A DNA stretch of 64,000 nt from an uncultured Acidobacteriota bacterium (GCA_963813155.1 CAWEYG010000002.1:416001-480000); one strand, 5' to 3'; counted from the first letter of the stretch, positions 16,655-36,142 are shown. The notes: generated from the letters alone by a model not told the origin. Numbers and translations: made by a program.

Positions 16655-18525
16655 ATGGCCGATCCCATCAGCTCCGTGACCGGTACCAAAGGCGGCCTCG
16701 CCGTCGCTCCCTCGCTGGAGCCTTCGATCGAGACCGCTCGGACGCCGCCCCGGACCCCGACCGTCGACCGGAGGGTCGTCGTCCTCAGCGTCTGGGCGAT
16801 TCTGATCGGGTTGGGCGCCGGCCTTGTGGCACGAGCTCTCGTGCTGCTGATCGGTTTCATCACGAACGTCTCGTTCTACCACCGGCTCTCCTTCTCGTTC
16901 GCCTCGCCGGCCGGCAACAAACTCGGCGCCTGGGTCATCCTCGTTCCGGTCATCGGAGGCCTCGATCGTCGGTTTCATGGCCCGTTACGGCTCGCAAGGC
17001 GATTCGCGGACACGGGATTCCCGAAGCGATGGAACAGGTCCTGCTCAACAAGAGCCGGATCTCGCCGCGGGTGACGTTTCTGAAACCGCTCTCCGCCGCG
17101 ATCGCGATCGGAACCGGCGGCCCTTTCGGGGCCGAAGGCCCGATCATCGCGACCGGCGGCGCGCTCGGCTCCCTGCTCGGACAGCTCCTCGAGACGACCG
17201 CGGTCGAGCGCAAGACGCTCCTCGCCGCCGGCGCCGCCGCGCGGGATGGCGGCGACGTTCGGAAGCCCCGTTTCGGCGGTGCTCCTCGCCATCGAACTGC
17301 TCCTCTTCGAGTTCCGCTCCGCGATCCCTCGTGCCGGTGCGCTGGCGCAAGCGCGGCGGCGACGGGCATGCGCTTCTTTTCGTCGGAACGGACCCCGTCT
17401 TCGCGATGTCCGAGCTGTCGACAGCCGAGGCGGCGTCGCCCTCGCGCTCTACGTCGCCCTCGGCGCGATCATCGGCGTCGTCGCCGTCGCTGTGACTCGG
17501 GCCGTCTATTCGTCGAAGATGCGTTCGAGCAGCTCCCGATTCACTGGATGTGGTGGCCGGCGATCGGCGCCGTCGCGGTCGGCGTCGTGGGATGGATTCT
17601 TGCCCCGCACGCTCGGCGTCGGCTACGACAACATCGACACGATTCTCTCGGCTCGCCTCACCGTCGAGGCTCTCGCGCTGCTCGGAGCGCTGAAGTTCCT
17701 CTCCTGGTCGATCTCGCTCGGCAGCGGAACGTCCGGCGGGACGCTTGCGCCGCTCTTCACGATCGGCGGCGCGATCGGCGCCCTGCTCGGCGAATGGCCT
17801 GCGCGCGCTGCTGCCGTCCGCGGGGATCGACGTTCGCATCGCCGCGCTCGTCGGAATGGCGGCGATCTTCGCGGGCGCGTCGCGGGCGCTTCTGACATCG
17901 GTCGTCTTCGCGTTCGAGACGACGCTCCAGCCGCTCGGCTTGCTGCCGCTCCTGGGCGGCTGCACGGCCTCGTTCCTCGTGTCTTCGCTGCTGATGCGGG
18001 ACAACGATCATGACCGAAAAGATTTCGCGGCGCGGAGTCCGCGTGCCGGCCGACTACGAAGCGGATTTCCTCGGGCAGGTGCTCGTCCGCGACGCCTGCT
18101 CCCGAGACATCGTCTCTCTGAGCACGGAACAGACGCTCGACGAGACCCGAAGTTGGATCGCGTCGGGAGCCCCGGGGACTTCCCATCAGGGTTATCCCGT
18201 CGTCGACCGGAACGGAACGCTCGCGGGAGTGCTGACCCGGCGGATCCTGCTCGATCCGAAACATGACGGCTCGAGAAGTCTTCGCGAGCTGCTGACGCGG
18301 CCCCCGGCCGCGGTCTTCGATGACTCGACGCTCCGGGAGGCCGCCGATCACATGGTCGGCGAGGACGTCGGCCGGCTTCCCGTCGTCGCTCGGGATCAGC
18401 CTTCCCGCGTCATCGGTTTCATCACCCGGGGCGACCTCCTCGCCGCGCACCGGGGGAGGCTCGACGCCTCCTCGAAACCGGAACGCGCGATCGCGTGGAC
18501 CCGAAAGGCCGCTCCGAAGGCCTGA
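16655..18525 (+). CDS. ClC-family chloride channel/transporter with C-terminal CBS pair, multiple frameshifts
   Basis: [31 protein letters not shown]; CBS motifs YPVVD and LPVV...ITRGDLL. Confidence 0.85.
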
Positions 18526-18532
18526 TCCTCCG

Positions 18533-20477
18533 ATGGCAAGGCGACTCTCGAGCCCGATCCCTCTCCGGACGAGCCTTCTCGGAGCCTCCGCGTTTCTCGT
18601 ACTGACTGGCTGCGCATCCCGGCCGGCGGCTCCGACTCTCGAGGAGTACACGCGGGGCGCCTCGCCGATCGCGGAGGAAGCGGCCCGCCTTTCGAGAGCG
18701 ACGCGGATTCGCCCGGGTTCCGGCGGCCCGAGAGCGGCGGCCTGCTCGACGCCGCCGAACGATGGCGGGCCGAGGCGGACGGCACGAGAGTCGAAAGCTG
18801 GATCGTCGACTTTCCCCGGAAGCCGTCCCGGGCCGCGGTGATGAGAATTCGCGTGAGCCTCGAGGGAACGCAACGGGGAGAACGCGGCGTCCGGCTCTCG
18901 GCCGACGAGCTGTTCGACCTCGACCTCTCGCGCGAGAAAACCCGGTGGACCATCGCCGGAGCGCGGGCGGTCGACACGCCCCGGATTCTCCGCGGACGGC
19001 CGCATCTGCGCGAGGTCGCGTCGGAGATCGGGCTTTCCGCGGCACTCAACGATTCGGTCGATCCCGCGGAAGCGACGAATCTCTGCATCCCCGCGACTCA
19101 CCATCATCCCGGAGTCGTGCTCGCCGACTTCGACGGCGACGGCTCGATCAACGTCGTTCTCCCGGGCGCGCATCCCCGTCTCTTTCTCAACGACGGGCAT
19201 GGACATTTTCGGGACGCGACCCCGGGCTCGGGCCGGTGACGCTTCCTCCCGGAGAAGCGGCGGGCGGCGTCGCGGCCGACCTCGACGGCGACGGGCTGCC
19301 GGAGCTCTTTCTGACGTACGCGTATTCGGATTGCCGCCTCCTCCACAACGACGGGAACGGCCGGTTCCATCGCGGATGGGCCTTCGCCGCCTCGGCGTGC
19401 GACTTCGACGGCGACGGCGACGACGACCTGTACGTCGCGAACGATTTCGGCACGAACTGTCTCTACGAAAACGTGTCCACGCCCGGTCGGCCCCGGTTCC
19501 GCGAGATCGCGAAGAAGGCCGGCGTGCTCGACGACGGCTATGGGATGGGTGTCGCGTGGGGAGACTACGACGGCGACGGCCGCTTCGATCTCCACGTCTC
19601 CGATTTCTCGTCTCCCTACCGGTGGATGATCCGGTCTCCGCTGCTGCCAATGCCGCCGGTTCCAGCTTTCGTTCAGGCCGTCGCGCGGCCGATCGTCGTT
19701 CCGATGCTGCTGCGCCGCTGCGCGGGAGACGGCCTCTACCGGAATCGCGGCGACGGAACGTTCGAGAAGACTTCCGCGAAGGCGGGAGTCGCCGAGGGGG
19801 GATGGGCGTGGGGGACCGAATTCGTCGACCTCGACGGGGACGGTTTCGAGGACCTGCTCGTCGTCAACGGAATGTGGGAGGCGTCTCCGGGCGGGAAGTG
19901 CGACGAGGTGAAGTTCTGGAACGACATGTCGGCGGAGGGGATTGCGTTTCACGACGGGTTCTGGGGCGGAATCGATTTCGGCCGCAACGGAATGGCGTCC
20001 CGGACGGCGAAGCACCTCTACCGGAACCTCGAGAACGGGAAATTCGAGGACGACGCGTACGTCGAGGGCTTCGACACGCGCGGCGACACCCGGGGGCTCG
20101 CGTTCGGCGACCTCGACGGCGACGGCGCGCCCGAGATTGTGCTCTCGACCTTTCGCGGACCCCTGCTCGTCTATCGCAACGGGTGGAACGCCGCCCGGCG
20201 CCTCACGATCCGCCTGGAGGCGACCGCCGGCCACAACCGGGACGCAGTGGGAGCCGTCGTAAGGCTCTCGGCGGCGGGAAAAACGCAGATCCGCGAGGTC
20301 CGCGCCGGCTCGTCGTTTCTCTCCTGTTCGGCGAAGGAGCTCTACTTCGGCCTCGGAAGCGCCGAGAAGGCCGATTCGATCGAGGTTCGCTGGCCGGACG
20401 GGAAACGCGAGACGCGGACCGATGTGCCGGCGGGGAGGTTTACGTGGAAAGAGGAACAGAGGGAAAACGCCCGATGA
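18533..20477 (+). CDS. Lipoprotein with FG-GAP repeats and C-terminal ASPIC/UnbV domain (CRTAC1-like), frameshifted
   Basis: Lipobox LTGC; repeated DxDGDG motifs; NRDAVGAVV, GSSFLS...LYFGLG...VRWPDG. Confidence 0.8.
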
Positions 20478-21220
20478 GGCTCGCTCGTCCCGGATTGCGG
20501 CCAGCCCCAGCGCCAGCTCGGCAAGTCTCTTCGACCCTCGGCCGCAGTTCGCTTTCCCTCGGAATCTCAGAGATCAGCCTGCGCCGGCGCGTTGGCCCCC
20601 GGCCGCTCCGGCCCTGGGTGGTCTTGATTTTTCTTGTGGCGGCACCCGTCTGCGCTTCCGAAAAAGCCCGCGCGTTCCGCGTCCGCGTCGGCAGCGAGTC
20701 GGTCCGCGTGATCGTCCCGAAGACGTTCGAGCCCCTTCTCCCCGGCTCGGTCTACCCGAATCGCCGAAAGCCCGCGGACGCGCGGCGGCTCCCGATCGCG
20801 ATCCTCGCGCCGGAGACCGCTCCGCCCTCGAATTCCTCCTCGAGCGGCAGTTTCTCGTCGCGGTGCGCCACTCCGCGACGGTCGAGGATCTTCTCGGGGC
20901 ACTCGCCTCCCGGCCGGAGGCGGACCCGGGCCGCGCCGCGATTTTCGTTTTTCGCGAGGCCCAGGTGCTGCCGGCCGCGATCCGCGCGATCGCGATCTTC
21001 GATCCCGATCTCCGGGTAAACCGGCCGCGGCCTTCTCTTCCCGTCGCCCTTTTCCTCCGGTCGCCGCACCTCGTTTCCCTCCGCGGAGCTTTCCCGCGAT
21101 CTGAACGGCCGCTTTCGGGACGCATGCCGTCGAGAAGTGGTACCGGGGCGAAACGGGTTTTCCGAAGCAGGCCTACCGCGACGCCGCGGAGTGGGCGGCA
21201 GACGGATCCTCTCGCGTTAG
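20474..21220 (+). CDS. Hypothetical protein, frameshifted, boundaries uncertain
   Basis: ATGA overlap with the upstream gene; hydrophobic segment WVVLIFLVAAPVCA; coding-like peptide continues across frames to FPKQAYRDAAEW. Confidence 0.4.
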
Positions 21221-21231
21221 AATCAAAGGTC

Positions 21232-24007
21232 ATGGCGGATCCGTCCCCGAAGTCTCGAAGCACTGTCCTCCAACCCTGGCAACGCCGGATCTACCAGATC
21301 CTTCTCGTGCCTCTCGGGTTGATCGCCGCCGATTCCATCTACCTCGTTTCGTTCACGAAGTACTCGTCGTTTTTCATGGCGATGTTGCTGCTGCACCTCG
21401 TGCTCGGGCTCCTGCTCTCCATACCCTTCTTCGTCTTCGCTTTCACGCACGCGCGGAAGATGATCCGAACGCGAAACGTTCGCGGCGAGAGCACGGCCGG
21501 CCTCGCGATGGCGCGTCCCTCCGCGATCATTGTCACCGTGACAGGCCTTCTCATGACCTTCAAGGGCGCGACGATCAAGAACCGGCCGATTCTATTTTGC
21601 GCACGTGTTCGCGACTCCGCTTGCGCTCATCGCCTTCGTCCTTCACCGCCGGGCGCACTCGCACCAAATGGCGTTCAAGAAGCTCTTTGCCTGGGGCGGA
21701 GGGGTGGCGGGGTTCCTCGCGGTCATGGCGCTGCTCCACCTGACCGAAAAGCCGCCGCGGCGGGTCGTCAACCGGAACGGCGACACGCAGTTCTTCCTGT
21801 CGTCGGCCGAGACGTTCGACCAGGGACTGCTCGATCCCGCGAAGCTCTCCGCGAACGGCTACTGCCAGGAGTGCCACCCGCACGAGCTACGCGCGCTGGC
21901 CGAAATCGGCCCACCTCTTCAGCTCGTTCAACAACCCCTTCTACCGGCGCTCGGTCGAGCTGATGGCCGACAAGGTCGGCCGCGAGAAGACGAAGTGGTG
22001 CGCGGGCTGCCACGACCCCGTCGTTCTCTTCTCGGGCAAGATGGGCAAGGCGACGCTGCAGAAATTCACCTACGACGACTTCGAAGCCCAGCAGGGGCTG
22101 ACGTGCATGTCGTGCCACTCGATCGCGCAGGTAAAGGACGTCGGGCAACGGCTCCTACGTCATCGAGGATCGAAGCAGTATCCGTTCGCCTTCGCGTCGA
22201 ACCGGTACCTCCACGAGGTCAACAAGCTCCTCATCCGGATGGAGCCGTCGCTCCACCGTCAGACGTTCATCAAGCCCGTCATGCGGCAGCCGGAGTTCTG
22301 CTCGACGTGCCACAAGGTCGCGCTCTTCCGCCCATGAACGACTACAACTGGCTGCGCGGCCAGGACCACTACGACTCCTGGTAGGACTCCGGCGTCTCGG
22401 GCTTCGCGGTGCGGTCCTTCTACGACCCGCCCGCGCCGAAGGCGTGCCGCGACTGCCACCTGCCGCCCTTTCCGTCCGACGAGTTCGGGAACCGCGGCGG
22501 CTTCGTCCACGACCATGCCTTCCCGGCCGCGAACACCGCCCTGCCCGCCGGCGCGGGGACGCGAGACGGCGAATCCCCCGAGAAGTTCCTGAAGGGGTCG
22601 CTCACGGCCGACCTCTTCGCGATCCGGCGCGGCGGCCAGGTGATGCCGATCGGACCGGAATCCGGCGCTCGTCCCGGCGAGACGGTCGGCGTCGAGGTCG
22701 TCGTGCGCACGCGGAAGCTCGGCCACCAGTACACGAACGGCACGGCGGACTCCAACGAGACGTGGGTCGCGTTCTCCGCTGACAACGGCGAAAGACTCGT
22801 CGACAGCGGAACGCTCGCCTCCGACGGTCGTCTCGACCGGCGGCCGACCGCCTTCGCAGCTCGTCCTCGACCACACCGGCCAGCCGATGGACCGCCGCCA
22901 GCCGCCCGAGATCCACACGGGCCTCTACAACAACGGGATCGGGCCGGGCGCCGGGGCTCGCGCGTGCGCTACGCGCTTCGGGTGCCGCGCGAGGCGCGCA
23001 GGGGCCGTGACGCTGTCGGCGGCCGTCGAACTACCGCAAGTTCTCGCGCGATTACTCGATCTTCGACGGGCGGCTCGAATGCGCCCGAGCCTTCCCGTCA
23101 CGGAGATCTCGCGAGACTCGGTGACGCTGCGGTTCAAGTTCGAGGGACTCCGGCACGGGTGTCGGCCTTCGAGATCCCGAGGGAAAGCGAACTGCGGCCA
23201 GGGTCGCGAAGGCTCGACACGCGGGGCGGAGTCCCGACCGGAAACTCGGACAAGGCGTGGCTCCGCTGGAACGACTACGGCATCGGCCTGTTCCTGCAGG
23301 GCGACCTGAAAGGCGCCGAGGCCGCCTGGGCGCAGGCGCGAGCTCCTCGCTCCGACAAGCCGGACGGACCGCTCAACCGCGCCCGCGCCCTGATCCAGGA
23401 AGGCAATCTGGCCGACGCGGAGACGGCGCTGAACGAGGCGGAGCGGCGGCGGCCCGGCTGGCCGAAGACGGCGTTCTTCCGCGCGACTCTCGAGAAAGAG
23501 CAGGGCCAGCTCGATGCTGCGCTGAAGGACATGAACCTCGTCGCCGCGAAGTTTCCGAAGGACCGCGTCTGCTGGAACCAGATCGCGCGGATCCTGTTCC
23601 TCCAGGGCAGGTACGACGACGCGCTGCGCGCGATCGAAAGCGTCTACGCGATCGACCCGGAGGACCTCTCGGCCCACTACAACGCGATGCTCTGCTTCAA
23701 GGCGCTGGGCCGAAAGCCGGAAGGGCTCGTCGAAGAGCGCTGGTACAAGTACCACAAGGACGACGAGACGGCGGGCGCGCTGATGGCCCAATTCCGCCGC
23801 GACCATCCGTTCGCGAATCGCGAGTCGCTGCCGATCCACGTCCACGACGACGCCGCGCCCGTCGCTCCGCCTCCCCCGCCGTGGATCTCGCAGATCGGGC
23901 CGAAGGGGTACGCGTACAAGGGGTACGCGCCGCAAGGCGAGAAAGTCCTCCACGACGACCGCCCGCCCATGGTCATGCCGCCGCTCGTGCCCGCGAAGTC
24001 GAAGTAA
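21232..24007 (+). CDS. Membrane-anchored multiheme cytochrome c + TPR protein (frameshifted; in-frame TAG at 22382)
   Basis: N-terminal TM helices; CQECH (21863), CAGCH (21999), CMSCH (22104), CSTCH (22299), CRDCH (22445); RWNDYGIGL followed by TPR-like helices. Confidence 0.85.
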
Positions 24008-24031
24008 GAACGCTGCTGTAAACTCCCCGCG

Positions 24032-25749
24032 ATGAAAAAGCTCGGCCGTCGCTGTCCTGTGCTTCGCGTCATTCGCCTGCCGGAAGAAGGAAGCACCGGT
24101 CGCCGCGAAAATCCAGCCCGTCGTCGAGGCGAAGGCGCCCGCCGTCCGCTTCCAGGAAATCACGAAAGAATGCGGCATCGCGTTCGTCCAGGTGAGCGGC
24201 GCGGCGGGGAAGAAATGGATGCCGGAGACGATGGGAGGCGGCGTCGCGATTTTCGACTACGACAACGACGGACGCAACGACATCCTCCTCGTCTCGTCCT
24301 CGTACTGGCCGGGCGATCCCCGGGCCGCGAGCCAGAAGAGCTCCCTCGCGCTCTACCACAACGAAGGAAACGGGCCGGACGGCGTTCCGAAATTCCGCGA
24401 CGCGACGAGAGAGGCCGGCCTCGAGCGGGTCCTGTACGGCATGGGCGCGGCGATCGGAGATTTCGACAATGACGGGTGGCCCGATCTCTACGTCACGGGG
24501 CTCGGCGAGCAGGGAGGCAACCGCCTCTTCCGCAACGACCGCGGAAAATTCGTCGACGTGACGAACGCGTCCGGCGCGGGCGACCCCGGCTGGGGAACGT
24601 CCGCCGCGTTCTTCGACTACGACGGCGACGGCCGCCTCGACCTGTTCCTCGCCCGGTACGTGGAGTGGAGCCCCGCGAAAGACATCTATTGCTCGCTCGA
24701 CGGGGCGCGAAAGTCGTACTGCACGCCCGAGCGATACGACGGAACGTCCTCGAGGCTGTTCCACAACGAGGGCAACGGCCGGTTCCGGGACGTCACGGCG
24801 GCCGCAGGCGTCGGGACGAAAAACGCGAAGGCGCTCGGCGTCGCGCCGTACGATTTCAACGGCGACGGAAAGATCGATTTCGCGGTCGCAAACGACACCG
24901 CGCCGAACAACCTCTACCGCAACAACGGCGACGGCACGTTCACGGACGTGGCCGTCGAAGCGGGCGTCGCGGTCAACGAAGCGGGCCGGTCGCGCGGAGC
25001 GATGGGAGCCGACTGGTCCGACGCGAAGACCGGGGCGCAGCGCTCGCGATCGGAAACTTTTCCAACGAGATGAAGTCGTTCTACTGGACCGACACCGGGG
25101 ACGTGTTCCTCGATCTCTCCGCTTCCTCCGGGATCGGGCGCGACTCGCTGCTCGCTCTCACGTTCGGCGTCTTCTTCTTCGACTACGACCTCGACGGACG
25201 ATCCGACCTGTTCTTCTCGAACGGGCACGTCGAAAACTCGATCCAGGACGTGCAGAAGGCCGTGTCGTACCGGGAATCGCCGACGCTCTACTGGAACGCG
25301 GGCGACGGACGGATGTCCGACGCGACGCGGGAGGCCGGGCTCGCGATCCCGATGGTCGGCCGCGGCGCGGCTTTCGGGGACCTGGACGGCGACGGAGACC
25401 TCGACGTCGTGACGGTCGAGAACGGAGGCCCGGCGCACGTCTTCCTGAACCGGCTGGACAAACCGTCCCGGAGCCTTCGCCTGCTGCTCGAAGGGAGCGG
25501 CAAGTCCAACCGCGACGCGATCGGGGCGAAGGTCACGGCGCTCGTAGGCGGAAAGCCCCAGATCCGGATCGTTTCCACGGCGAAGTCGTACGCCTCGGCC
25601 TCGGAAAAGGCGATCACGCTCGGCCTCGGCGACTCGAAGGAGGCCGATTCGGTCAAGGTCACGTGGCCCGACGGCACGACGGCCGAAGCGCTCCACGTCG
25701 GGCCCGGGAACTACCGGTGGGTCGAGGGCGGCCGCCGGAAAAGAAGTGA
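24032..25749 (+). CDS. CRTAC1-like FG-GAP/ASPIC-UnbV protein (probable lipoprotein), frameshifted
   Basis: PETMGGGVAIFDYDNDG, multiple DxDGDG, GRGAAFGDLDGDGDLD, NRDAIGAKV, VTWPDG. Confidence 0.85.
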
Positions 25750-25783
25750 GCGGACCGAGTTATGGCTGTGTTATTATGGCGCG

Positions 25784-26021
25784 ATGAAGAGGACGACGGT
25801 CATGCTGCCGTCCGAGCTCCACGAGAAGGCGGCTCGCTACGCAGCGAGACGCCGCGTCTCGTTGGGGCAGCTCGTTCGGAACTCGCTCCGAGACAGCGAT
25901 GGAGGAACCTCCGAGGAGTCCCCCCACCGGGACCCGCTGTGGGCGGACGACGAGGTGTATCGGGGAAAGACGCCACGAGACCTGGCTCGGAAACCATGAC
26001 CGGTATCTCGAGTCCGATTGA
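25784..26021 (+). CDS. Ribbon-helix-helix antitoxin (VapB-like), frameshifted
   Basis: MKRTTVMLPSELHEKAARYAARRRVSLGQLVR; lies directly upstream of a PIN toxin. Confidence 0.75.
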
Positions 26022-26421
26022 TCTTCGTCGACACGGGCGCCTTTCTCGCGCGATACCTCTCAGGGGATTCGCTGCACGGCCGCGCAACTCGCGCCTGGAA
26101 AGATCTCGAAAGACGAAAACGCGGCAATCTGCACGAGCCACTTCGTGCTCGACGAAACCCTGACCCTGCTGGCCCGGCGCGCCGACTATCGGTTTGCCGC
26201 GGAGCGTGGTCGTCGTATCTACGCTTCTGGAGGCGCTGAGAATCCTGCGCGCGGACGAACGAGCGAGAAACAGGCTCTCGGATATTTCGAGAAATTCGCG
26301 GACCAGAACGTGAGCTTCACCGACTGCGTGAGCTTCGCGCTCATGATGCAGCACAGAGATCGAACGCGTGTTCACGTTCGATCGTCACTTCGCTCTAGCG
26401 GGATTCGACGTCCGGCCGTAG
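26018..26421 (+). CDS. PIN-domain toxin (VapC-like), frameshifted
   Basis: IFVDTGAF, VLDETLTLL, SFTDCVSFALM, FTFDRHF...GF across frames. Confidence 0.85.
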
Positions 26422-26460
26422 TCGACACTTCGGTGGCAGAGCAAGGGGGTGGGCGATTAC

Positions 26461-28118
26461 ATGGTGATTGATCTAGTCTCACCTGAAGCTCGCCGAATTG
26501 AATCTGGAAATCGACGACGCGCACAAATCCTCGCTGGTGCTCACGCTCCCGCGTCCGGAGGCGTGTTGGTGGATCTTGACCGCATCAGAGCTCCTGGCAA
26601 TAAATCATTTTCGTGCTGGCCCACAGCGTTCTGCAATCGCATCAGGAGGCATCCTCGTTTACGTACTACGGATACTTTTTCTCTGGGCAAACGGTCTCCG
26701 TAACACACGTCAACAACTACCCCCACAATGGCAGCCCGATCACTTTGAAGCGGCGAGGGATCTAATTTCCGCCGCAGATGCTTACGGCGACGCAGAAGTC
26801 GTCTTCTCTCTCGCATCGAACGGAATGATCGGATTAAACGTCGAGAATGGAGTCCTCATTCCCCGCATGAGTCCTGAGGTTGATCAGCGCTACGAAGCCT
26901 ATTGTCGTCTTCATCGGTCTCGACCTGAGCGCAGGCAACCCGAGCCAGAACGTCCTGAGCGATTACTCGGCAATTCAAGCGAAGGTAAAGGAGAAACTTT
27001 CTATCATCGACGGCTGTTGGACTCTCCCACTCAACCCTCAGCTGGTTGCCGATGCAAGTGCTCTGGCATCACGTCTCGACACGGCGATGTTCCAGTAACC
27101 TCCAACGTGGCAACTCCATAGCTTTACTTTGGGAGACTACCGCCAATGCGCCATCGCACTGCAAGCAATGGCATTCCTCCGCCGATCCGTGTCGCTCATG
27201 GCCGTGACCTCTGGTGCGGACTGGCGTTTGGTAGGCGGCCTTCTGCAACTGACTTCCCGGGATGAACTGGTACAGCGCCTTCGCCGCTATACGGATCTGG
27301 CGGTTGAAACAGTGACGGCCATCGTCGACTACATGACCCTCGGCTCAGGTGACCTCGGGCCGGGTGCAAGCGACCCGGCACTTCAACCTCTTGATCCCAC
27401 TGGGCGATTCGAATCTAGCCATCTCTCCCTATCTGTTTATCGGGGTCTGACCTCGAGCGAAACCTATTGACATTGGCGAACAAGATTCCCGCCGACCGCG
27501 CGATCTATCAGAGTCTGTCGAACGAGAAACAAGCACTTAATGAATGAACAGTTTCGCTCCTCGGTTAAGGGCTTCGAGTTTTGGTCAGGGTCAATTCCCG
27601 GCCGCAAGGATCTTCCCGACGTAGATCTAGCGATCATTGATCGTCCAACAAAGAGTGTAATTCTTGCTGAGCATGAAATGGTTCTTGCCACCGGCGGAGA
27701 CGCGAGAGGGTCGGGAGAAGACCGCCGAACTGAGGAAGGGAACCGACCAACTCAAGGAAGTTGATCGCACACTCAAGCGCTGGTGAAAGATGACTCGTAG
27801 GAGTTGGGTCTGATTACGAACTGCACCCGGTCGTTGTCTCCAAGAATTGGATCGGTCACTGGGAGGCGCAGGACAACGAAATCCCGATTGTTGCAAATGG
27901 AACACCTGATCCATGAGATCAATGCAACGCACGACGCTGCACGGGTCGGTCTATGGCTCAAGGAGCGAAAGTACCTGCCGGTCGAGGGAACTGACTTCGA
28001 AATAATTTGGCGAAATCGTGACATCTTCGGCCGACACCTCCGGTGGTACGGCCTTCGCCTCCTGAGCAGCCTTAAGACGCACGCTCCTCGAGACTTCAGG
28101 GGAGTTCAAGGAGTTTAG
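26461..28118 (+). CDS. AT-richer hypothetical gene (fragmented) with C-terminal PD-(D/E)XK nuclease-like motif
   Basis: Consecutive same-strand ORF fragments; LPDVDLAIID...ILAE-(M)KW near 27610-27685; visibly lower GC than the flanks. Confidence 0.5.
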
Positions 28119-28124
28119 GTGGCC

Positions 28125-28574
28125 TCAGCACAGGAACCTCCCGATCGGCAGCATTTCCTTGACGCCGCTCGATCCGAGGATGAGGGGCAGGTCCGCGAGG
28201 TGCGACACCGCGATTCCGCCGAGCTTCCAGGCAAAGCCCGGCAAGCGAGAGGTCCTGTCCGGCCGGTGCGGACCGACGAGCAGCGAACCGAAGCCCGGCT
28301 GAAGCACGGCCGCGAGGATCGACCATTCGACAAGGCGCAGCGGCGCGTAGATTTCCCAGTAGAGCGAGACGGGCTGGTCGGCGGGCAGGCGAAGAACCGA
28401 GACGGAGAGGAAGACCGTCAGGCCGAGGACGCCGCCAAGAACGAGACGGAGCAGGCCCAGGCGCAACCCGCTCGGCCACGGAGACGCGCCGGGAGCGCGG
28501 AAGAGCCGGACGCCAAGCGTGCACCAGAGCGCGTAGGCCGTGTACTTCCCGGCGACGTACGCGAGGCCCGCCAA
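28125..28574 (-). CDS. Small integral membrane protein
   Basis: Several hydrophobic segments at the end of ORF 28125..30998; TTG preceded by GGAAGG; fused in the ORF track only through an upstream frameshift. Confidence 0.6.
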   Translation of the reverse strand: MAGLAYVAGKYTAYALWCTLGVRLFRAPGASPWPSGLRLGLLRLVLGGVLGLTVFLSVSVLRLPADQPVSLYWEIYAPLRLVEWSILAAVLQPGFGSLLVGPHRPDRTSRLPGFAWKLGGIAVSHLADLPLILGSSGVKEMLPIGRFLC

Positions 28575-28585
28575 CCTTCCGTCGA

Positions 28586-30347
28586 TCAGCGGCGCTTCCG
28601 CAGCGGCTCGAGCGAGCCGCCCCGCCGCAGCTTCCACGCGCCCGCCTTCACGTCTCCCAGGTCCTGAACCGTGCCGTCCGGCCAGTTGACCGACGCGCGA
28701 GCGGACGCTCGCCGTACCGATGCCGAAGTGGAGCGGAAGCCACGACCCGGACGCGTAAGAAGGTTGGACGAAGAACTCCTTGACGTGTCTCCCGACCGTC
28801 ACGACCGCGCCGAGCACGGTCTTCCGGTCGGCGCCCGCGACGGGGAGGATCTCGATCGCGTTTCCGGCCGGAGTCTCGTTGCGGAGGACGACCGCGGGAT
28901 GGGCGATCGGGTTGTACGCGAGGTCGAGCCGGCCGTCGCCGTCGAAGTCCGCGGCCGCGAGCCCGCGCCCGACGAGGCAGAGCCGGCCCAGGTCTCCCGA
29001 GACCGCCGAGACGTCGTCGAACTTCATCTCCCCGGGCCGCGAGACGTTGCGAAACAGGAATTGTCTCTGCGCGTAGCTCTTCTCGCCGATCCCGAATTTT
29101 CGCGCCTGCGGGTTGACCCAGCTCCCGATCACCGTCCAGAACCGGGAGAGGATCTGGCCGCTCGTCACGGCGAGGTCGTCGCGGCCGTCGTTGTCGTAGT
29201 CGAGCGCGACGGCGCCCCACTTCGACAGGGGCAGCGTGGGATCGCGGTCGCCGCCGAAGGCGGTGCGGTCGTCCTCCTCGAACAGCTGCCCCTCGACGTT
29301 CCGGTAGAGCGTGTTCGGCTCGGCCGCGTAGTTGGAAATGTAGAGATCCGTCCGCCCGTCGCCGTCGAGGTCGTCCGCGACGAGCCCCATGCCGGAGCGC
29401 GTCCGACGGCCGAAGGCGGTCGGCCCTTCCGGCGGGTACCCGGTGCCCGTTTCCTCCGAGACGTCGCGGAATTTCCCGCCCCCCTCGTTGTGGAACAGCG
29501 TGTTTCTCCACTGGTCGTTCGCGACATAGAGGTCGGTCCGGCCGTCGCCGTCGTAGTCGATCGCGACGGCGCCGATCGTCTTGGAGCCCGGGTCGGCCGT
29601 TCCGGACGCCTTTGTGACGTCCTCGAAACGCAGATCGCCCCTGCCCCGGTACAGCGCGTTGTCCTGCCCCGGGTATTCGTCGGGCGTTTTCACGCCGAAC
29701 CCCGCCGACGATTCCCGGACCGGGTCGGTGTCGAGATAGTTCCCCACGTACACGTCGGGAATTCCGTCGCCGTCGAAATCGCCCGCCGCGAGGCCAATCG
29801 TCATCTTTCCGTTCTCGAGCCCCGACCGGGGAACGAGGACGAACGTCCCGTCCCCGCGGTTTCGCCAGAGCGTGTTTCCTCCAACGTTTCCGACGACGAG
29901 ATCGGGATATCCGTCGGAATCGAGGTCGGCCCACATCGCGGAAATCCCCCAGCCGCAAGCGCGGATTCCCGACTTCTCCGTCACGTCCTCGAAGGTCCCG
30001 TTTCCCCGGTTTCGATAGAGTCGGCCGCAGGTCGCGAGATCTTCCGCTCCCGCACGCGCGCCTGCCTTCGAATGCGGGATCTGGTTGACGAAGAAGAGGT
30101 CGATCCAGCCGTCGCCGTCGAAATCCGCCGCCGCGACCCCGCCTCCCATCGTCGGGATCAGCTTCGCGTCGACGAAGTCCCCCTTGAACCGGAATGCGAC
30201 GCCGGAGGCCGCCGTCACGTCGCGAAAGAGCGCGCCGGTCACGTTTCGGCGCCGCGAGTCCTCCTCCCGGAACAGCACGATTCCGACGACGGCGCACACG
30301 GCCGCCAGGATGAAGAGCGCGAACGCGAGCCGGGCCAGCATCTTCAT
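28586..30347 (-). CDS. CRTAC1-like FG-GAP/ASPIC-UnbV protein with N-terminal membrane anchor
   Basis: PTMGGGVAAADFDGDG, many DxDGDG, PSYASGSWLPLHFGIG; frameshift near 28700. Confidence 0.88.
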
Positions 30348-32086
30348 CGGCGGAAGGCTCGAACTTCCGCGAGCTTTTCGCCGCGAAGGCGGTAGAGGCG
30401 GTCGGCCGCAACGTCGCGCAGGACGACCGAAGCCGCCGTTTTTCCGGGAGGGAGGACTTCGACGGAGTCCGCCTTCGCAGCGTCTCCCAGGCCGAAATGG
30501 AGCGGAATCCACGAACCGGACGCGTACGACGGGACGACGATGAACTCCTGTGTCTGCGTTCTTCCTCCCGCCGTCACCCTCACTTTCGTGCCGAGGCAGG
30601 TGTGGCGGTCGGCCGCGGCGACCGGCAGGATTTCGATCGCGTGGCCCTGCGAAGCGGCCGTGTTGCGAAGGAGCCGGGACCCGCCCGAGATCGCCGCGAC
30701 CGCGATATCGACCCTTCCGTCGCCGTCGAAGTCGGCGGCCGCCGATCCCCGCGCGCACACCCTGAGCTTGCCCAGGTCGCCCGATGTCGCGGCCGCGTCC
30801 TCGAACACCCCGTTCCCCCCGTTCCTCCAGAGACAGATCGGCTGGCGATAGGCCCGGTTTCCCTCCCAGATGTGCTCTTTCATTCCGTAGCCGAGCAGTT
30901 TCGAAACTACCGCCAGGATTCGCCGGCCGATGTGGCCCGACACGGCATAGAGGTCCGGATAGCCGTCGTCGTCGAAATCCACAAAGCCGGTGCCCCACTG
31001 AACGAAAGGACGCGAGGCGGCGCCGGAGTTCGTTTCGTCGGTCGCGTCGTCGAACAACTGTCCCTCGACGTTTCGGTAGAGAGTGTTCGTCTCGCCCGAG
31101 AAGTTCGTTACGTAAAGGCTCGGATGGCCCGAAAGGAATGGATCGCCCACGGCGATTCCCATGCCCGCCCTCGCCCGGCTCTCCCGCGCGCCCGCGCCTG
31201 TCTGCTCCGTCACGTCCTCGAATCTTCCGCCGCCCAGGTTCCGGTAAAGACGGTTCGTCGCGAGATCATTCGCGACGAAAAGGTCCTGCTTCCCGTCGCC
31301 GTCATAGTCGAAGAAGACGGCGCCCGTCCCCTTGCCGTGGGCGTTCGAGACCCCGGAGGCCGCGGTTGTCTCTTCGAAGGAGCCGTCGCTCTTTTGATGG
31401 AAGAGACGCGCGTCCTCGCCCGCGTAATCCTCCGGCATCCGAACTTGAAACAGGGGGAACGAGAGCTCGTGCGCGAGCGACGTTTCGAGATATCCGACGA
31501 AATAGAGGTCCACGCGCCCGTCGCCGTCGGCGTCCCCCGCGGCCACGCCGATCGTGAAGTGGTGGCCCAGCACGAGGCCCCATTCCCGGGAGACTTCCCG
31601 AAATGTGCCGTCGCCGCGGTTGTGCCACACGGTCGTCTCGTCGAGCCCCGCGACGATCAGATCCGGGAGGCCGTCCGAATCGATGTCCACCCAGGAAGCC
31701 GACATCTGCCAGCCGCACGCGCGGATCCCCGACCTCGCGGTCGCGTCCTCGAAGGATCCGTCCCCGCGATTGCGGTAGAGCGCGCCGCACGGGCCCTTTT
31801 CCGGCTTGAACGCGTTTCCGGCGGAACCCGTGAAGAACAGGTCGGTCCAGCCGTCTCCGTCGTAGTCCGCCGCGGCGACGCCTCCCCCCATCGTGGAGAT
31901 CATGCGGCCGTGGCGCAGGTCGGTCTTGAACCGAAAGCGGATGCCGGACTCCTTCGTGACGTCCCGAAACGTGAGCGTCGCGGCGAATCCGGGGGCACCG
32001 AGGGCGAGGAGAAACACGACCAAAAGTCGCGAGGGGTGGCGCGGGAGGAGACCCCTTTTGCCGCTCGCGGCGCGGAGTCGTAGCAA
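30344..32086 (-). CDS. CRTAC1-like FG-GAP/ASPIC-UnbV secreted protein (start uncertain, 32086 or 32023)
   Basis: Signal-like LVVFLLALGAPGFA; STMGGGVAAADYDGDG; PSYASGSWIPLHFGLG. Confidence 0.88.
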   Translation of the reverse strand: MLRLRAASGKRGLLPRHPSRLLVVFLLALGAPGFAATLTFRDVTKESGIRFRFKTDLRHGRMISTMGGGVAAADYDGDGWTDLFFTGSAGNAFKPEKGPCGALYRNRGDGSFEDATARSGIRACGWQMSASWVDIDSDGLPDLIVAGLDETTVWHNRGDGTFREVSREWGLVLGHHFTIGVAAGDADGDGRVDLYFVGYLETSLAHELSFPLFQVRMPEDYAGEDARLFHQKSDGSFEETTAASGVSNAHGKGTGAVFFDYDGDGKQDLFVANDLATNRLYRNLGGGRFEDVTEQTGAGARESRARAGMGIAVGDPFLSGHPSLYVTNFSGETNTLYRNVEGQLFDDATDETNSGAASRPFVQWGTGFVDFDDDGYPDLYAVSGHIGRRILAVVSKLLGYGMKEHIWEGNRAYRQPICLWRNGGNGVFEDAAATSGDLGKLRVCARGSAAADFDGDGRVDIAVAAISGGSRLLRNTAASQGHAIEILPVAAADRHTCLGTKVRVTAGGRTQTQEFIVVPSYASGSWIPLHFGLGDAAKADSVEVLPPGKTAASVVLRDVAADRLYRLRGEKLAEVRAFRR

Positions 32087-32163
32087 AGTCCTCCAATCGC
32101 AGCGAGCGGAAAAGCGGGTCGAGTCCCGTGACAGGACCCCGAGCGAGCCAGGCGAGTCGGTGC

Positions 32164-35100
32164 TCAACGAATCGCCGGCTGTCCGTAATCGCGCACCCAC
32201 GCGTAGAACTTTTCGTTCGACACCGGCCTCGTCACCCATTCCTCGAGAAACTTCTCGTCCGGGAATTGTTCCGGTAAGGCGTACGGGTAGCGGCTCATGG
32301 AGTGGAACGGGTAAGGCCCGATCTCCGCTCCGCTCAGCGTGTTCTTGTCGAAATCCTTGTCCCAGCCGTCGGAAACGAGAATGTAGTCGCGCTTCCACCC
32401 CGCCCGCAGGGGGGGCAGCGCGCGCGCGTCGAAATCGATTCGAATCGAGTCGCCGCCGAGGAACGCGACCCACCTGTCGTCGCTTCGCGCGAGGAGCGGC
32501 GTGACGTCGCCGTAGCGCGTGACCCGGCCGGAAACGTCCGCCCAGTGCGGCTGCCCCGAGACCTCGTCGTGGTCGAACACTTCCGGCCCGTCCGGCGTGT
32601 CCCGATACCGCCGCGAGAAACCCCGCTCGGAAAGCGTCGCGCGGACCGGCGACAGCTCCGTCGTCGCGACTTCGACGGCAGGATCGTTCACGGTCACGAA
32701 CGCCTGGTCCCAGTAGACCTCCATGGTCGTTCGAATTCGGACCCGGGGGTCGCGGGGATCGACGATCCCCGTCAGGTCGACCGGCATCGTCTTCGTCTTC
32801 CCGGCGGGAAACCCGAACGACTCGATCGCGACCCTCCAGCCCCCTTTTCCGTCCGGCACTTCGAGCAGGGGCGGGAAGGGGCGGACGTCGCTTCGCTGGG
32901 AGAGCGATACGTTGATTGACGTGTCGGTATAAAAGATCCAGCCGTTGAGAAACAGCATCACACGATCGCCCGCGCGAATCGGACCGAGGTCGAGCGTCAG
33001 AGAATGCTCGCTGCGCACGCCCTGGTAGGCCGTCGGGAGCCCCGGCGCGACGTACCGGCGATCCTCTCTCGCGAGGAGGTCCGTGACATCGACGCCGCCG
33101 TCGGCCCATGCCTTCCGGACGGGTCGCGGCCGCGCGACCGTGAAGATTTTCTTCTCCAGAATGCCGGGCACCATTCGTTCGTTCGGAACGAAGTCGGTTC
33201 CCGCCGGGTGATCGACCGCGACGAGGCGCGCCATGTCGAGAAAGGCCGCCTCCCAGAGCTCCTCCGTGTAATCGAGCTCCAGCCGCCCGTCCCGATCCGG
33301 CGAAAGCATCGCGCCGGGGATCTTCAGCCATTCGCGGGGGTCGGCGCCGGCCGCGTGTACCCCATCGTAGAGAAGGCCGAGGGGAGCGCGGCCGAGCGCG
33401 TCGGAGACGAAGCTCCATTTGCCGGTCGCCCCGTTGCGCGCGTACACGAACGGGCAAGAGCCCTTGAGCTGCTGGATCTCGTGGATCGTCGTTGACGCTC
33501 TCTGGTCGAAGAGATTCTGAGGGACCCCGTTCGTCCAGACGCACCGGACGACGTCCGCCTTCGGCCGCTTGCCGAGGCCGAAATGCGTCGGAAGAACGGT
33601 CACGGTCTGCGCGACGTAGAGGTCGCCCGCCTTCACTTCGAGAAGCGAGCCGACTCCTTCGCGGTTGACCTTGCCGGACCCCGAAGCGAGCCCCTGAAGG
33701 GTCACATCGAGCCAGCCGTTCGCGTTGCCGCCGTCGTTTTCGAGGAGCTTCGGGCCGCTCGCCGTCGCGAGCGCGAGGTCGAGATCTCCGTCCCGGTCGA
33801 AGTCGACGGCAACGATCGCGTCAACCGGATCCGCGATCTTCGGGGCGATCGGCCACCAGGTGAACGTCTCGAAACCGGCGTTCCGGTAGACGATCAGCCC
33901 GGACTCGCCGCCGACGGCGATATCGGGAAATCCGTCGTTGTCGAGATCGGCGATCGCGACGCTCCGCGGAACGAAACCTGCCGGGAGCTTCGCAAGGTCT
34001 CCCCCGGCAGCGCGCTCGAACTTTCCATCCCCCTTGTTGATGAGGAGAATGAGGGACTTCTTCGTCGCGACGACAAGGTCCGGAAGGCCGTCCGCGTCGA
34101 GATCGGCAACGGCGACGTCCACCGCTCCCGCGACGCCGAGAGAAACGTCCTGAAACCGACCCTGGCGCAGGTTCGACCGAACGACGAGGTCTCCCCGCGA
34201 GGTCACGCAGACGAGATCGGGATCGCCATCCCGGTCCACGTCCGCGACGACGACTCTCGACGATGAGAATTTCGCGTCTCCCGTCGCCGAGGTGGCGTCC
34301 GCCCAGGTTCCGTCGAGGTTGTTCCGAAGGAGCCGGTCGGGACCGCCCGAACCGAAGAGGTAGACGTCCAGGTCGCCGTCGAGATCGAAATCGAGAAACG
34401 CCGCGGCCCGATAGGGCGAAGGAATCGAGTAGGCCTGCGGAGCTCCCGAGTTCGAGAGGTCCACCCGGTAGCGAATCGCGTCCGGCGCGAATTCCCGCGC
34501 CCGCGCGGACTTTTCCACGAGCCTCACGGCAACGGGGGATCCGGCCCTCGGCCGGAGCGACTCTTCGAAGGCCGCGCCGAACGACTCGATCGGCAGGCCC
34601 GCGACGTCCGTGTACAGCTCGGAAAGGGACTGGCGATAGCGGTCCGTCACGCGCAGGAGATTCTCGACGATCCGGAACTTCAGCACCGCCTCTTTCGCCG
34701 GACCGGATCGCAGGAGCTCGCGCCCCTCCGAGAAGAATTTGGAAACGCGAGGGTCCATCGGCTCAAGGATCTCCACGATCTTCGCGAGCGTCTCGCGCGC
34801 GGCATCGGTCTCTCCCGAATCGATCCGCAGCAGGAGGAGCTTGAGAAGGGCCGCGAGGTTCGACGGGGACGCGCGAAGGATCTCCTGGAGATACCGGGCG
34901 AGCTCGGCCCGATTTCCCTTCTCGGCCGGGTCGATCTCCGCCGAGCGAATCCATCTCCAGCGCGATTCGAGATCTCGCGGCGAGGCCGCGGCCGCCTTCG
35001 CGAGCAGCGCGCGCATCGCCGGAGCATCGTTTTTCGCGCTCTCGATCGCCGCGCCGATCGCGTACAGGTCCGCTCTCGGCGGACCGAGGGACATCGCCCG

Positions 35101-35364
35101 GGCGAGGAGTTTCGAGGCCTCGGGCAGATCGTTGCTCCGCAGCGCCGCGACCGACGCGTCGGCGGGAGGCAGGGCGTCCCGCGGAACGAGCTCCGCGAGC
35201 TTCTGGAACGAGGCGAGCGCCTCGCGGTTCTTCCCCTCTTCGAGCTCCGCGAGACCCCGGTTCTTCAGGGAGAGGATCACGGCGGCTCGATCCGGGCTCG
35301 CCGCGGCAGCCGCCCGCGCGAGAACCGCGGCGGCAAGGACGGGAAGGAAGACGAATCGCCTCAA
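32164..35364 (-). CDS. Large secreted TPR + FG-GAP + ASPIC/UnbV protein with C-terminal domain of unknown function
   Basis: Signal peptide, TPR-like helices (NRGLAELE), DxDxDGD repeats, HFGLG...WTNGVPQ, KGSCP, GWDKD, PFHSMSRYPY. Confidence 0.85.
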   Translation of the reverse strand: MRRFVFLPVLAAAVLARAAAAASPDRAAVILSLKNRGLAELEEGKNREALASFQKLAELVPRDALPPADASVAALRSNDLPEASKLLARAMSLGPPRADLYAIGAAIESAKNDAPAMRALLAKAAAASPRDLESRWRWIRSAEIDPAEKGNRAELARYLQEILRASPSNLAALLKLLLLRIDSGETDAARETLAKIVEILEPMDPRVSKFFSEGRELLRSGPAKEAVLKFRIVENLLRVTDRYRQSLSELYTDVAGLPIESFGAAFEESLRPRAGSPVAVRLVEKSARAREFAPDAIRYRVDLSNSGAPQAYSIPSPYRAAAFLDFDLDGDLDVYLFGSGGPDRLLRNNLDGTWADATSATGDAKFSSSRVVVADVDRDGDPDLVCVTSRGDLVVRSNLRQGRFQDVSLGVAGAVDVAVADLDADGLPDLVVATKKSLILLINKGDGKFERAAGGDLAKLPAGFVPRSVAIADLDNDGFPDIAVGGESGLIVYRNAGFETFTWWPIAPKIADPVDAIVAVDFDRDGDLDLALATASGPKLLENDGGNANGWLDVTLQGLASGSGKVNREGVGSLLEVKAGDLYVAQTVTVLPTHFGLGKRPKADVVRCVWTNGVPQNLFDQRASTTIHEIQQLKGSCPFVYARNGATGKWSFVSDALGRAPLGLLYDGVHAAGADPREWLKIPGAMLSPDRDGRLELDYTEELWEAAFLDMARLVAVDHPAGTDFVPNERMVPGILEKKIFTVARPRPVRKAWADGGVDVTDLLAREDRRYVAPGLPTAYQGVRSEHSLTLDLGPIRAGDRVMLFLNGWIFYTDTSINVSLSQRSDVRPFPPLLEVPDGKGGWRVAIESFGFPAGKTKTMPVDLTGIVDPRDPRVRIRTTMEVYWDQAFVTVNDPAVEVATTELSPVRATLSERGFSRRYRDTPDGPEVFDHDEVSGQPHWADVSGRVTRYGDVTPLLARSDDRWVAFLGGDSIRIDFDARALPPLRAGWKRDYILVSDGWDKDFDKNTLSGAEIGPYPFHSMSRYPYALPEQFPDEKFLEEWVTRPVSNEKFYAWVRDYGQPAIR

Positions 35365-35413
35365 CCGCGCGAATTCTATCGGTTCTGCGAAGGCGTGAGA
35401 TATAAATCGCGGG

Positions 35414-36142
35414 ATGAAAATCGTCGGGGTCATCCCGTCGCGGCTCGGGTCGACGCGGCTGCCGAGAAAGCCGCTCGCCGTGATCGCCGGAAAGGCGATG
35501 GTCGAGCGCGTCTACGAGGGAGCGCGGGGCTTCGGGGGCTGGGCGAGCCTCGTCGTCGCGACGGATTCGGACGAGATCCTCGCTTTCTGCCGTTCCCGCG
35601 GAATCGACGCGGAGCTGACGTCTTCTTCGCACGTGTCCGGGACCGACCGGATCCGCGAGATCGCATCCCGACGCGAGGCGGACGTGTACGTCAACGTCCA
35701 GGGAGACGAGCCGATGGTGACCGCGGCCCACATCGAAGCGCTCGTGCGCCCGTTTCTCTCCGGCCCGGGCGTCTCCGTCACGACGCTCGCGCTCCCCCTT
35801 CCCGAGGCGGAGGCCGGCAATCCGAATACCGTCAAGGTCGTTTCGCGAAGGGACGGACGAGCTCTCTATTTCTCGCGCAGCCCGATACCGTTCGATCGCG
35901 ACGGCGCCGGGGCCCGCTATTGGAAGCACCTCGGCTTCTACGCGTACCGGGGCGAAATGCTGAACGCGTTTTCGAGCCTTTCCCCTTCCCCTCTCGAAAC
36001 GGCCGAGCGGCTCGAGCAGCTGCGATTCCTCGAGAACGGAATCGACATCCACGTCGCCGAATCGCCGGCCGACACCTGGAGCGTCGACACCGCGGAAGAT
36101 CTCGCGCGCGTCGAAAAATATTTCCAAAAACTCTCCTCGTAA
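35414..36142 (+). CDS. kdsB: 3-deoxy-manno-octulosonate cytidylyltransferase
   Basis: IPSRLGSTRLPRKPL, SGTDR, VNVQGDEP, LYFSRSPIP, LEQLRFLENG. Confidence 0.95.
   Translation: MKIVGVIPSRLGSTRLPRKPLAVIAGKAMVERVYEGARGFGGWASLVVATDSDEILAFCRSRGIDAELTSSSHVSGTDRIREIASRREADVYVNVQGDEPMVTAAHIEALVRPFLSGPGVSVTTLALPLPEAEAGNPNTVKVVSRRDGRALYFSRSPIPFDRDGAGARYWKHLGFYAYRGEMLNAFSSLSPSPLETAERLEQLRFLENGIDIHVAESPADTWSVDTAEDLARVEKYFQKLSS

Follow-up and report, generated by a model that had tools for sequence, protein, structure and literature searches.

A family of membrane multihaem cytochromes with a conserved CRTAC1-like partner gene in Acidobacteriota

The NapC/NirT/CymA family and the Geobacter proteins CbcL and ImcH are membrane-anchored multihaem quinol dehydrogenases. 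Enediyne gene cassettes and vertebrates alike have conserved members of the UnbV/ASPIC (CRTAC1) family, for which we know of no established function in any organism. Here, we describe a locus in which genes of the UnbV/ASPIC family accompany the gene for a membrane multihaem cytochrome. It lies in a 64,000-nucleotide stretch of DNA, called the window below, from an uncultured Acidobacteriota bacterium (GCA_963813155.1 CAWEYG010000002.1:416001-480000). This DNA is chromosomal, with ~67% G+C, and a species-genome scan placed its closest relatives among Thermoanaerobaculia (Acidobacteriota) genome bins. Positions 18533-35433 hold two convergent gene runs with five FG-GAP/UnbV (CRTAC1-like) propeller genes, designated G1, G3, G4, G5, and G6, and one gene for a cytochrome with tetratricopeptide repeats (TPRs). 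An earlier note on the window had described the five propellers, a membrane-anchored TPR protein with five CxxCH motifs, and the two convergent runs, and all of these were found where it had placed them. Like the quinol dehydrogenases above, the cytochrome combines an inner-membrane anchor with a periplasmic multihaem c domain and is predicted to link the quinone pool to periplasmic partners. However, it differs from NapC/NirT/CymA in having five predicted transmembrane (TM) helices with conserved histidines and in combining five haems with a mid domain, TPRs, and a tail. The propellers themselves belong to a known family; what is new is a family of membrane multihaem cytochromes with a conserved CRTAC1-like partner, for which we found no precedent.

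The core of the locus is a two- or three-gene extracytoplasmic module that is conserved in Thermoanaerobaculia and runs from an optional small lipoprotein gene through the cytochrome-TPR gene to G3. In the window, the cytochrome gene occupies 21232-24007 and G3 occupies 24032-~25750, both on the + strand. The earlier note had made its proposal depend on the linkage of cytochrome and UnbV genes across genomes, and they proved to be linked. We scanned 185,579 species genomes, 361 of which encode a relative of the cytochrome, and kept the best 80 loci, with flanks of up to 10 kb at either end. Neighbours were counted by tblastn with the window's own proteins, and a gene was called G3-type if it was at least 45% identical and on the same strand. 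With at least 9.5 kb of downstream sequence, 50 of 52 loci carried a G3-type gene, whereas any FG-GAP/UnbV gene in the upstream 9.5 kb, our internal control, was present in 4 of 59. Among the 46 loci with both flanks full, an FG-GAP/UnbV gene lay upstream in 3 and downstream in 44. In the larger set of loci with at least 1.5 kb downstream (69 of the 80), the G3-type gene started within 600 nucleotides of the cytochrome in 40 and 698-8009 nucleotides away in 21; it was missing from 8, 6 of which have less than 6 kb of downstream flank. For adjacent pairs, the gap between the cytochrome stop and the inferred G3 start had a median of 25 nucleotides and measured 52 nucleotides or less in 21 of 26. 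A convergent G5-type gene was present in 33, and a G6-type gene in 34, of the same 52 loci with a full downstream flank.

A tree of 58 full-length cytochromes resolved three deep, well-supported clades, each with its own neighbourhood. The main clade has genes for an S8 peptidase, a metallophosphoesterase, EPSP synthase, and a sigma-54 activator upstream and rhomboid, Macro, and Mrp genes beyond G5/G6. In the second clade, AddAB-like genes lie upstream, G3 follows 3.3-8 kb downstream behind genes for an MBL-fold protein and an M1 aminopeptidase, and G5 and G6 are absent within 10 kb. The window's clade (L001 to L004, with L001 the closest relative of the window) has a ClC channel gene and G1 upstream; the G1 type (family F30) was found only there, and G4 is likewise confined to it. 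Counting locus L026, described below, the cytochrome-G3 pair thus persists in about four otherwise different contexts.

The earlier note had also listed two orphan genes. The one at 20606-21215 (+ strand) is a remnant, spread over three frames, of a conserved small gene family (u59/F25) that encodes a putative lipoprotein of ~200-265 amino acids (aa) with no Pfam family; the other small open reading frames (ORFs) lie in a low-G+C insert. A copy of the small lipoprotein gene is present in 25 loci (e.g., L001 9191-9988 and L006 9142-9927). It ends just before the cytochrome start in 24 of them, lies further upstream in the 25th, and is directly upstream of the cytochrome in all second-clade and window-clade loci. 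Its product may be a third component of the module.

Some loci had further neighbours of note. The S8 peptidase of the main clade is a 1065-aa subtilase with a P-domain; in 29 loci (e.g., L036 6753-9947), its gene immediately precedes that of the cytochrome and shares its strand, and a 1300-aa sigma-54 activator is encoded near the cytochrome in this clade. Two loci, L026 and L057, come from bins labelled Dokdonella (Gammaproteobacteria) and carry a compact cytochrome-G3-G6 block, which may reflect mis-binning or transfer of the block as a unit. In L026 (1-17796), the block lies behind a polysaccharide cluster that encodes an ABC-2 exporter, glycosyltransferases (one fused to a sulfotransferase), and a GDP-mannose dehydratase.

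The cytochrome belongs to a large family. With the intact three-haem core as the query, 3844 longer proteins matched at E<=0.001 among 4962 candidates. Most relatives among the matches listed were ~900 aa long, and the few named ones bore either "multiheme c-type cytochrome" or "tetratricopeptide repeat protein" as their label. When a profile without the TPRs (A2) was used instead, 3063 clusters (50% identity) fell within E<=1e-3, and 742 of these within E<=1e-30. The family extends to Blastocatellia bins and to a cultured planctomycete, Isosphaera pallida ATCC 43644. We found no specific Pfam or NCBIfam model for the family, no specific NCBIfam model for any other component of the locus, and, in a literature search of main texts (supplements aside), no paper on the family or its pairing with UnbV.

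The protein is laid out as follows (residue numbers are those of the representative P0006). Residues 20 to 169 contain five hydrophobic stretches, and the alternation of basic loops between them, by reading, fits an N-in, C-out topology. Five CxxCH motifs follow within residues 209 to 408 (CQECH, CAGCH, CMSCH, CSTCH, and CRDCH in the window), and after them come a mid domain (~430 to 650, ~220 aa in the window) with a weak CARDB match only (E=0.03), a TPR region that opens with a conserved RWNDYG motif, and a conserved tail in which two histidines are retained in about two-thirds of members. TPR matches at E<=1e-5 were found in 32 of 42 representatives scanned, and the window copy matched TPR_2 at E=6.7e-12. 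Each of the five CxxCH sites is kept in 93 to 94 of 94 full-length representatives, across which His225, His340, His427, and His499 are invariant. Within the membrane domain, conserved histidines mark the outer ends of helices 2 and 4 (His55, kept in 82 of 83 aligned sequences, and His122, in 81 of 85) and, less strictly, their inner ends (His73, 65 of 81; His136, 60 of 85). This is the pattern that two-helix b-haem ligation would give, and it would fit one or two b-haems. The sole outside hint came from an atlas neighbour of the membrane domain (score 0.84), a cluster with Cytochrom_B561 in 18% of members. The haem domain gave weak c554, MtrC-domain, NrfB-like, and NapC Pfam matches in up to 26 of 26 members, and its sole solved sequence relative was the low-potential pentahaem c552 of T. 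tepidum (5ze8), a borderline match at E=0.031 over haems 1 to 3.

We then compared the propellers (the term covers all five FG-GAP/UnbV proteins). FG-GAP_3 matched each of them at E=1e-34 to 1e-46 (1.3e-34 for G1 and 6.8e-38 for G3), and each contains 5 to 7 DxDxDG motifs. The earlier note had called all five ASPIC/UnbV proteins. The FG-GAP part of that description applies throughout; the UnbV_ASPIC domain (PF07593; Pfam gathering score, 23.4 bits) exceeded its cut-off in three of the five, G1 (72.8 bits), G3 (51.8 bits), and G5 (40.7 bits), and fell below it in G4 (16.6 bits) and G6 (16.9 bits). The G4 score is low because a frame break cuts the domain, and the main-clade G6 representative had no UnbV match. 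All partner proteins carry export signals, and the note's description of differing targeting was accurate: G1 has a lipobox (...LVLTGC by reading), G4 a TM anchor, G5 a signal peptide, and G6 a signal peptide followed by TPRs. Among orthologues, G5 proteins have ordinary signal peptides, G6 proteins have a signal peptide and then TPRs, and all 36 of 36 G3 proteins have a signal peptide and a lipobox cysteine (C23), usually then Arg-Arg/Lys, and a Pro/Thr/Ala-rich linker. The paralogue motifs that had been noted were also recovered, with TMGGG accompanied by TPERY in G3, TPDEY in G4, and MPEDY in G5.

Next to these family features, we looked at which residues the propellers have in common. The 43 positions shared by G1, G3, G4, G5, and G6 are scaffold only (DxDxDG loops, repeat Asn/Gly/Phe, and the WPDG end), and no conserved Cys/His/Met cluster or redox metal- or cofactor-type site was found across the five groups. 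G3, G4, and G5 further share R325, N347/F348/E351 (N-F-x-x-E), R450, and the P-E/D-x-Y loop, which is absent from G1 and G6; H404 is common to G3 and G5. Profile searches of the PDB returned CRTAC1, fungal GlcNAc-binding lectins, integrin alpha chains, and a toxin-complex B-subunit propeller, all of which are binding modules. Human CRTAC1 (9etn) matched a single G3 sequence at E=6.6e-20, the G3 profile at E=1.4e-28, and the G6 profile at E=3.6e-13, and the G6 profile matched lectins and integrins (PVL 2bwm and 4tqj; integrin alpha chains) at E=5e-12 to 1e-6. With only the FG-GAP/Ca-loop scaffold in common, no conserved redox-type site, and solved relatives that all act as binding modules, the propellers gave no support to the suggestion that they are enzymes, and for G3 a ligand-binding role is more likely.

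Taken together, we favour, tentatively and at a little short of an even chance, a reading in which a quinone-linked b/c-type electron-transfer cytochrome works with the ligand-binding propeller lipoprotein G3. The cytochrome would be an inner-membrane protein whose histidine pairs in helices 2 and 4 hold one or two b-haems, with the five-haem c-type domain, the beta-rich mid domain, the TPRs, and the conserved tail following on the periplasmic side. Through its haem-b helical domain it would exchange electrons with the quinone pool, like CymA, CbcL, or ImcH in function, and the electrons would pass across the membrane and along the five periplasmic c-haems. G3, presumably co-transcribed, would be its working partner and most likely docks on the TPR/tail region of the cytochrome. 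G3, in which a Pro/Thr-rich linker tethers the Ca-loop FG-GAP propeller, would most likely bind or present a ligand (a substrate, polymer, or surface) that is acted on by the redox chemistry, and it would carry no redox cofactor of its own. The small upstream lipoprotein would be a possible third subunit. The convergent G6-G5(-G4) genes would provide a second set of related secreted propellers, often but not always neighbouring and with a looser tie to the cytochrome, and G1 and G4 would be recent additions in the window's lineage.

Several observations weigh against this reading. In the membrane domain, the spacing is classical for His122-x13-His136 but not for His55-x17-His73, and the domain matched no Pfam family at E<=1 and no PDB sequence at E<=10, the solved b-type cytochromes included. 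Only four invariant non-motif histidines are present for five haems, so that one haem could be catalytic. Because these four distal histidines serve five haems and one haem is perhaps not bis-His, the cytochrome may be an enzyme instead of a carrier. As for the linkage, the 80 loci come nearly all from one class and therefore amount to about four independent contexts, not 50. Synteny in the main clade covers housekeeping genes too, and the conservation is thus partly inheritance. Unrelated genes separate the cytochrome and G3 in the second clade, so co-transcription is not universal, and the two full-flank loci without G3 within 10 kb, L003 and L004, both have G1 upstream. Finally, FG-GAP/UnbV domains were found in 0 of 42 cytochrome representatives scanned. 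Cytochrome domains were present in two long G3 relatives (P0391 and P0352) among 120 matches listed; both have Pro/Arg/Gly-rich junctions, and we read them as probable frame-shifted read-throughs of neighbouring genes instead of true cytochrome-propeller fusions.

Some of these points would be accommodated if the genes were neighbours without being partners. The cytochrome would then be a self-sufficient protein of respiration or extracellular electron transfer, or else an NrfA-, c554-, or OcwA-like haem enzyme, the propellers would be unrelated envelope adhesins or glycan binders, and the gene order would have been kept by descent in one class. Main-clade synteny that extends to EPSP synthase, the sigma-54 activator, Mrp, and the Macro-domain gene fits this explanation, as do the intervening genes of the second clade, the lack of a true fusion, and the weak resemblance of the haem domain to c554, MtrC-domain, NrfB-like, and NapC proteins and to T. 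tepidum c552. However, mere descent does not readily explain why the pair survives where every other neighbour has changed, why propeller genes are so asymmetrically placed (50 of 52 downstream versus 4 of 59 upstream), or why the gaps are operon-like. It also sits poorly with the same gene order in P0391, whose cytochrome is only 36% identical, and with CRTAC1-like genes adjoining two other multihaem families. We consider this explanation unlikely, although it deserves to be taken seriously.

The proteins and loci behind these last two points offer hints beyond the class. In P0391, a member of the cytochrome family (36% identity to P0006; E=7e-119) precedes a G3-type propeller, so that a distant lineage shows the same order. 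In P0352, the G3-type propeller comes first, and the cytochrome behind it is TM-anchored, contains eight CxxCH motifs, and matches PDB entry 6i5b (E=4.8e-19). That entry is OcwA, which PMC6703420 describes as a terminal reductase of the cell surface, structurally akin to NrfA, c554, and MccA. P0391 and P0352 are single metagenome proteins and thus no more than suggestive of a wider cytochrome-propeller association. Independently, a 2025 paper (PMC12758564) reports that, in Planctomycetota, Syntrophobacter, and the acidobacterium Paludibaculum, a conserved FG-GAP gene of the CRTAC1 family lies between genes whose haem-containing products are homologous to hydrazine synthase (HZS) subunits. Three of the long G3 relatives among the matches listed bore the JGI label "enediyne biosynthesis protein E4."

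In the window itself, G1, the small lipoprotein gene, the cytochrome gene, G3, and G4 are not single open frames but carry indels of 1 to 2 nucleotides. Frame breaks lie near 18691 and 19235 in G1, near 24043 and 25034 in G3 (where a 1-nucleotide indel near 25734 also removes the stop codon), and near 28706 in G4. The cytochrome gene changes frame near 21595, 21882, and 22330 and has a scrambled stretch at ~22750-23250, and a full-length relative aligns to it as four frame segments plus that stretch. Because L001, which is ~90% identical, has intact G1, cytochrome, G3, and G4 genes and the ratio of nonsynonymous to synonymous differences (pN/pS) in the broken genes matches that of an intact paralogue, these breaks are probably consensus errors in a low-quality patch of the assembly. 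The L001 proteins map piecewise onto every gene from ~14.9 to 28.7 kb of the window, whereas its aldehyde dehydrogenase, G6, and kdsB proteins align in one piece, with no indels in the coding regions; the murD-murE frames are open as well. Frame-breaking indels relative to L001 are confined to 13200-28700, with clean flanks. Purifying selection acts on all of the genes compared, with pN/pS values of 0.18 for the cytochrome, 0.15 for G3, 0.22 for G1, and 0.20 for G4, next to 0.16 for the intact G6.

Alternatively, the + strand run (G1, the small lipoprotein, the cytochrome, and G3) could consist of decaying pseudogenes, with the system non-functional in this organism. The DNA differences from L001 are mostly patchy indels of 1 to 2 nucleotides, dozens of which fall between 13.2 and 25.7 kb, while the aldehyde dehydrogenase, G6, kdsB, and division/cell-wall genes are clean, and the cytochrome read in L001's frame contains one in-frame stop; both facts would fit decay. 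However, the broken zone takes in an unrelated ClC (ClC/CBS) channel gene and an MBL-fold gene and is thus regional and not specific to the system. Nearly all of the changes are single-base indels, with no large deletions, and the pN/pS values of the broken genes (0.15 to 0.22) are on par with that of G6. Moreover, the G5 frame is open in the window but broken in L001, which fits patchy consensus error. We regard decay as quite improbable.

The earlier proposal that all five propellers are redox enzymes, assembled on the cytochrome through TPRs as one periplasmic or surface complex that the cytochrome feeds with or drains of electrons, can point to the clustering of the genes, to TPRs in two of the proteins (the cytochrome and G6), to the polar residues beyond the scaffold common to G3, G4, and G5, which could line a pocket, and to the existence of propeller-plus-cytochrome redox enzymes such as the quinohaemoprotein dehydrogenases and cd1 nitrite reductase, but it is very improbable given that the five groups have only scaffold residues and no Cys/His/Met cluster in common, that G1 and G4 are limited to the window's small clade, that G5/G6 are missing within 10 kb in 18 to 19 of 52 loci, and that no oxidoreductase occurs among the solved relatives.

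The remaining genes of the two runs are as follows. G1 (18533-20477, + strand) encodes the lipoprotein described above and lies upstream of the small lipoprotein gene. On the - strand, G4 (28586-30347) has its TM anchor at the N terminus, its start codon overlaps the G5 stop, and it is a duplicate of G5 specific to the window's lineage. G5 (30344-32086, - strand) is an open frame with an inferred TTG start. G6 (32164-35433, - strand) is intact at 1089 aa and comprises the signal peptide, TPRs, an FG-GAP region, a degenerate UnbV domain, and a C-terminal domain of ~450 aa. The true G6 start is probably at 35364, the end coordinate given in the earlier note; this codon (Leu24) immediately precedes the signal peptide, and its use avoids the 20-nucleotide overlap with the divergent kdsB gene (35414-36142) that a start at 35433 would create. 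The C-terminal domain of G6 (residues ~650 to 1089, window 32164-33480) has many invariant motifs and is the most conserved part of the protein, with 64 to 91% identity among the matches listed. It matched no Pfam family and no PDB sequence, and all clusters that the atlas gave were unnamed or UnbV-associated.

A 2.8-kb insert of low G+C content (~0.56; 25750-28585), absent in L001, separates the convergently arranged G3 and G4. By reading, it contains an RHH-like ORF and a PIN-like ORF split over two frames; it gave no PADLOC, Pfam, plasmid, or phage match and has no bounding repeats. A 110-nucleotide segment, single copy in each genome and 91% identical, lies between G6 and G5 in the window (32031-32139) and between G1 and the small gene in L001 (9250-9359), where the window is without ~206 nucleotides. 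Further along the window, a complete-looking division and cell-wall cluster (mraZ, rsmH, ftsI, murE, murF, mraY, murD, ftsW, murG, ftsQ, ftsA, and ftsZ) occupies 36956-52657 on the - strand, tRNA-Ser and tRNA-Arg genes lie at 58032-58121 and 60401-60477, and the other genes are ordinary housekeeping genes. There are no other FG-GAP/UnbV genes elsewhere in the 64-kb window. In line with the earlier note, which had seen no polyketide synthase (PKS), ketosynthase, acyltransferase, and other PKS domains were absent from the window ORFs scanned (16, then 33, with some small ORFs unscanned) and from the 31 conserved neighbour families. No Rfam family was found in or near the region, and no tandem repeats were detected. 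A sigma-54 promoter consensus was not found near the operon in any locus, nor were sigma-70-like sites, and terminator-like hairpins were at the shuffled expectation.

The operon-like pairing with a membrane multihaem cytochrome offers a concrete, testable hypothesis for the function of UnbV/CRTAC1 proteins, and two other instances of CRTAC1-like genes adjoining unrelated multihaem proteins lead in this direction as well. A broader claim would be that UnbV-like propellers are dedicated extracytoplasmic partners of multihaem cytochromes. The cytochrome, whose family numbers thousands across Acidobacteriota and Planctomycetota and would have a haem-b membrane domain of its own, would then form with G3 an undescribed quinone-linked envelope redox system in which the propeller binds the substrate or acceptor of the chain; we consider this possible but somewhat unlikely. 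If it is true, a family that is conserved from bacteria, with the enediyne cassettes among them, to human CRTAC1 would gain its first biochemical role. Members of the cytochrome family occur in I. pallida, which is in culture, and in Acidobacteriota abundant in soil and sediment, and if the cytochrome is a quinone-linked electron conduit, it bears on the respiration of poorly cultured bacteria.

Among known systems, the quinol dehydrogenases would be comparable in function. Weak Cytochrom_NNT matches in 23 of 26 family members recall NapC/NirT; the window cytochrome scored 18.3 bits against a cut-off of 24.1 and has five hydrophobic stretches, not one anchor. The b-type domain of CbcL, which is of the HydC/FdnI type, lies at the C terminus, unlike the N-terminal helices here. 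The family differs from the NrfA type in that all of its haem motifs are CxxCH (93 to 94 of 94), with no catalytic CxxCK and no PF02335 (Cytochrom_C552) match in Pfam scans. Porin-cytochrome conduits (MtrCAB/Pcc) combine a beta-barrel porin, encoded alongside, with a periplasmic and a surface decahaem protein; here, MtrC-domain matches were at or under the cut-off (L022, 30.5 versus 30 bits; window piece, 17.4 bits), and no porin-like family occurred among the 31 conserved neighbour families. On structural grounds, a cable-bacteria paper (PMC11976967) unites T. tepidum c552, Geobacter ExtKL, and Gsu2801 in a pentahaem-plus-Ig-like (PHC) family. Our family likewise has five c-haems, followed by a domain that may be beta-rich and Ig-like, with the sequence match to 5ze8 borderline; the PHC proteins described in that paper have neither a five-TM domain nor TPRs.

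For the propellers, the HZS-like clusters offer a parallel in gene arrangement. Both they and our loci pair a CRTAC1-family FG-GAP gene with genes for haem c proteins; however, the haem proteins of the HZS-like clusters, some of which have c554-type multihaem domains, are homologues of HZS alpha and beta-gamma, with no TPR or five-TM cytochrome in the part of PMC12758564 available. FG-GAP lectins and integrin alpha propellers belong to the same repeat family, but those are pure binding modules without UnbV and without a cytochrome partner. In the enediyne PKS cassette (PKSE with E3/E4/E5/E10), UnbV (E4) lies beside a PKS, whereas no PKS domain was found nearby here. Relative to human CRTAC1, the bacterial proteins are lipoproteins or signal-peptide proteins without the EGF domain, and they share with it and with the UnbV_ASPIC family at large an FG-GAP propeller with DxDxDG loops that leads into a UnbV_ASPIC domain, above the Pfam cut-off in G1, G3, and G5.

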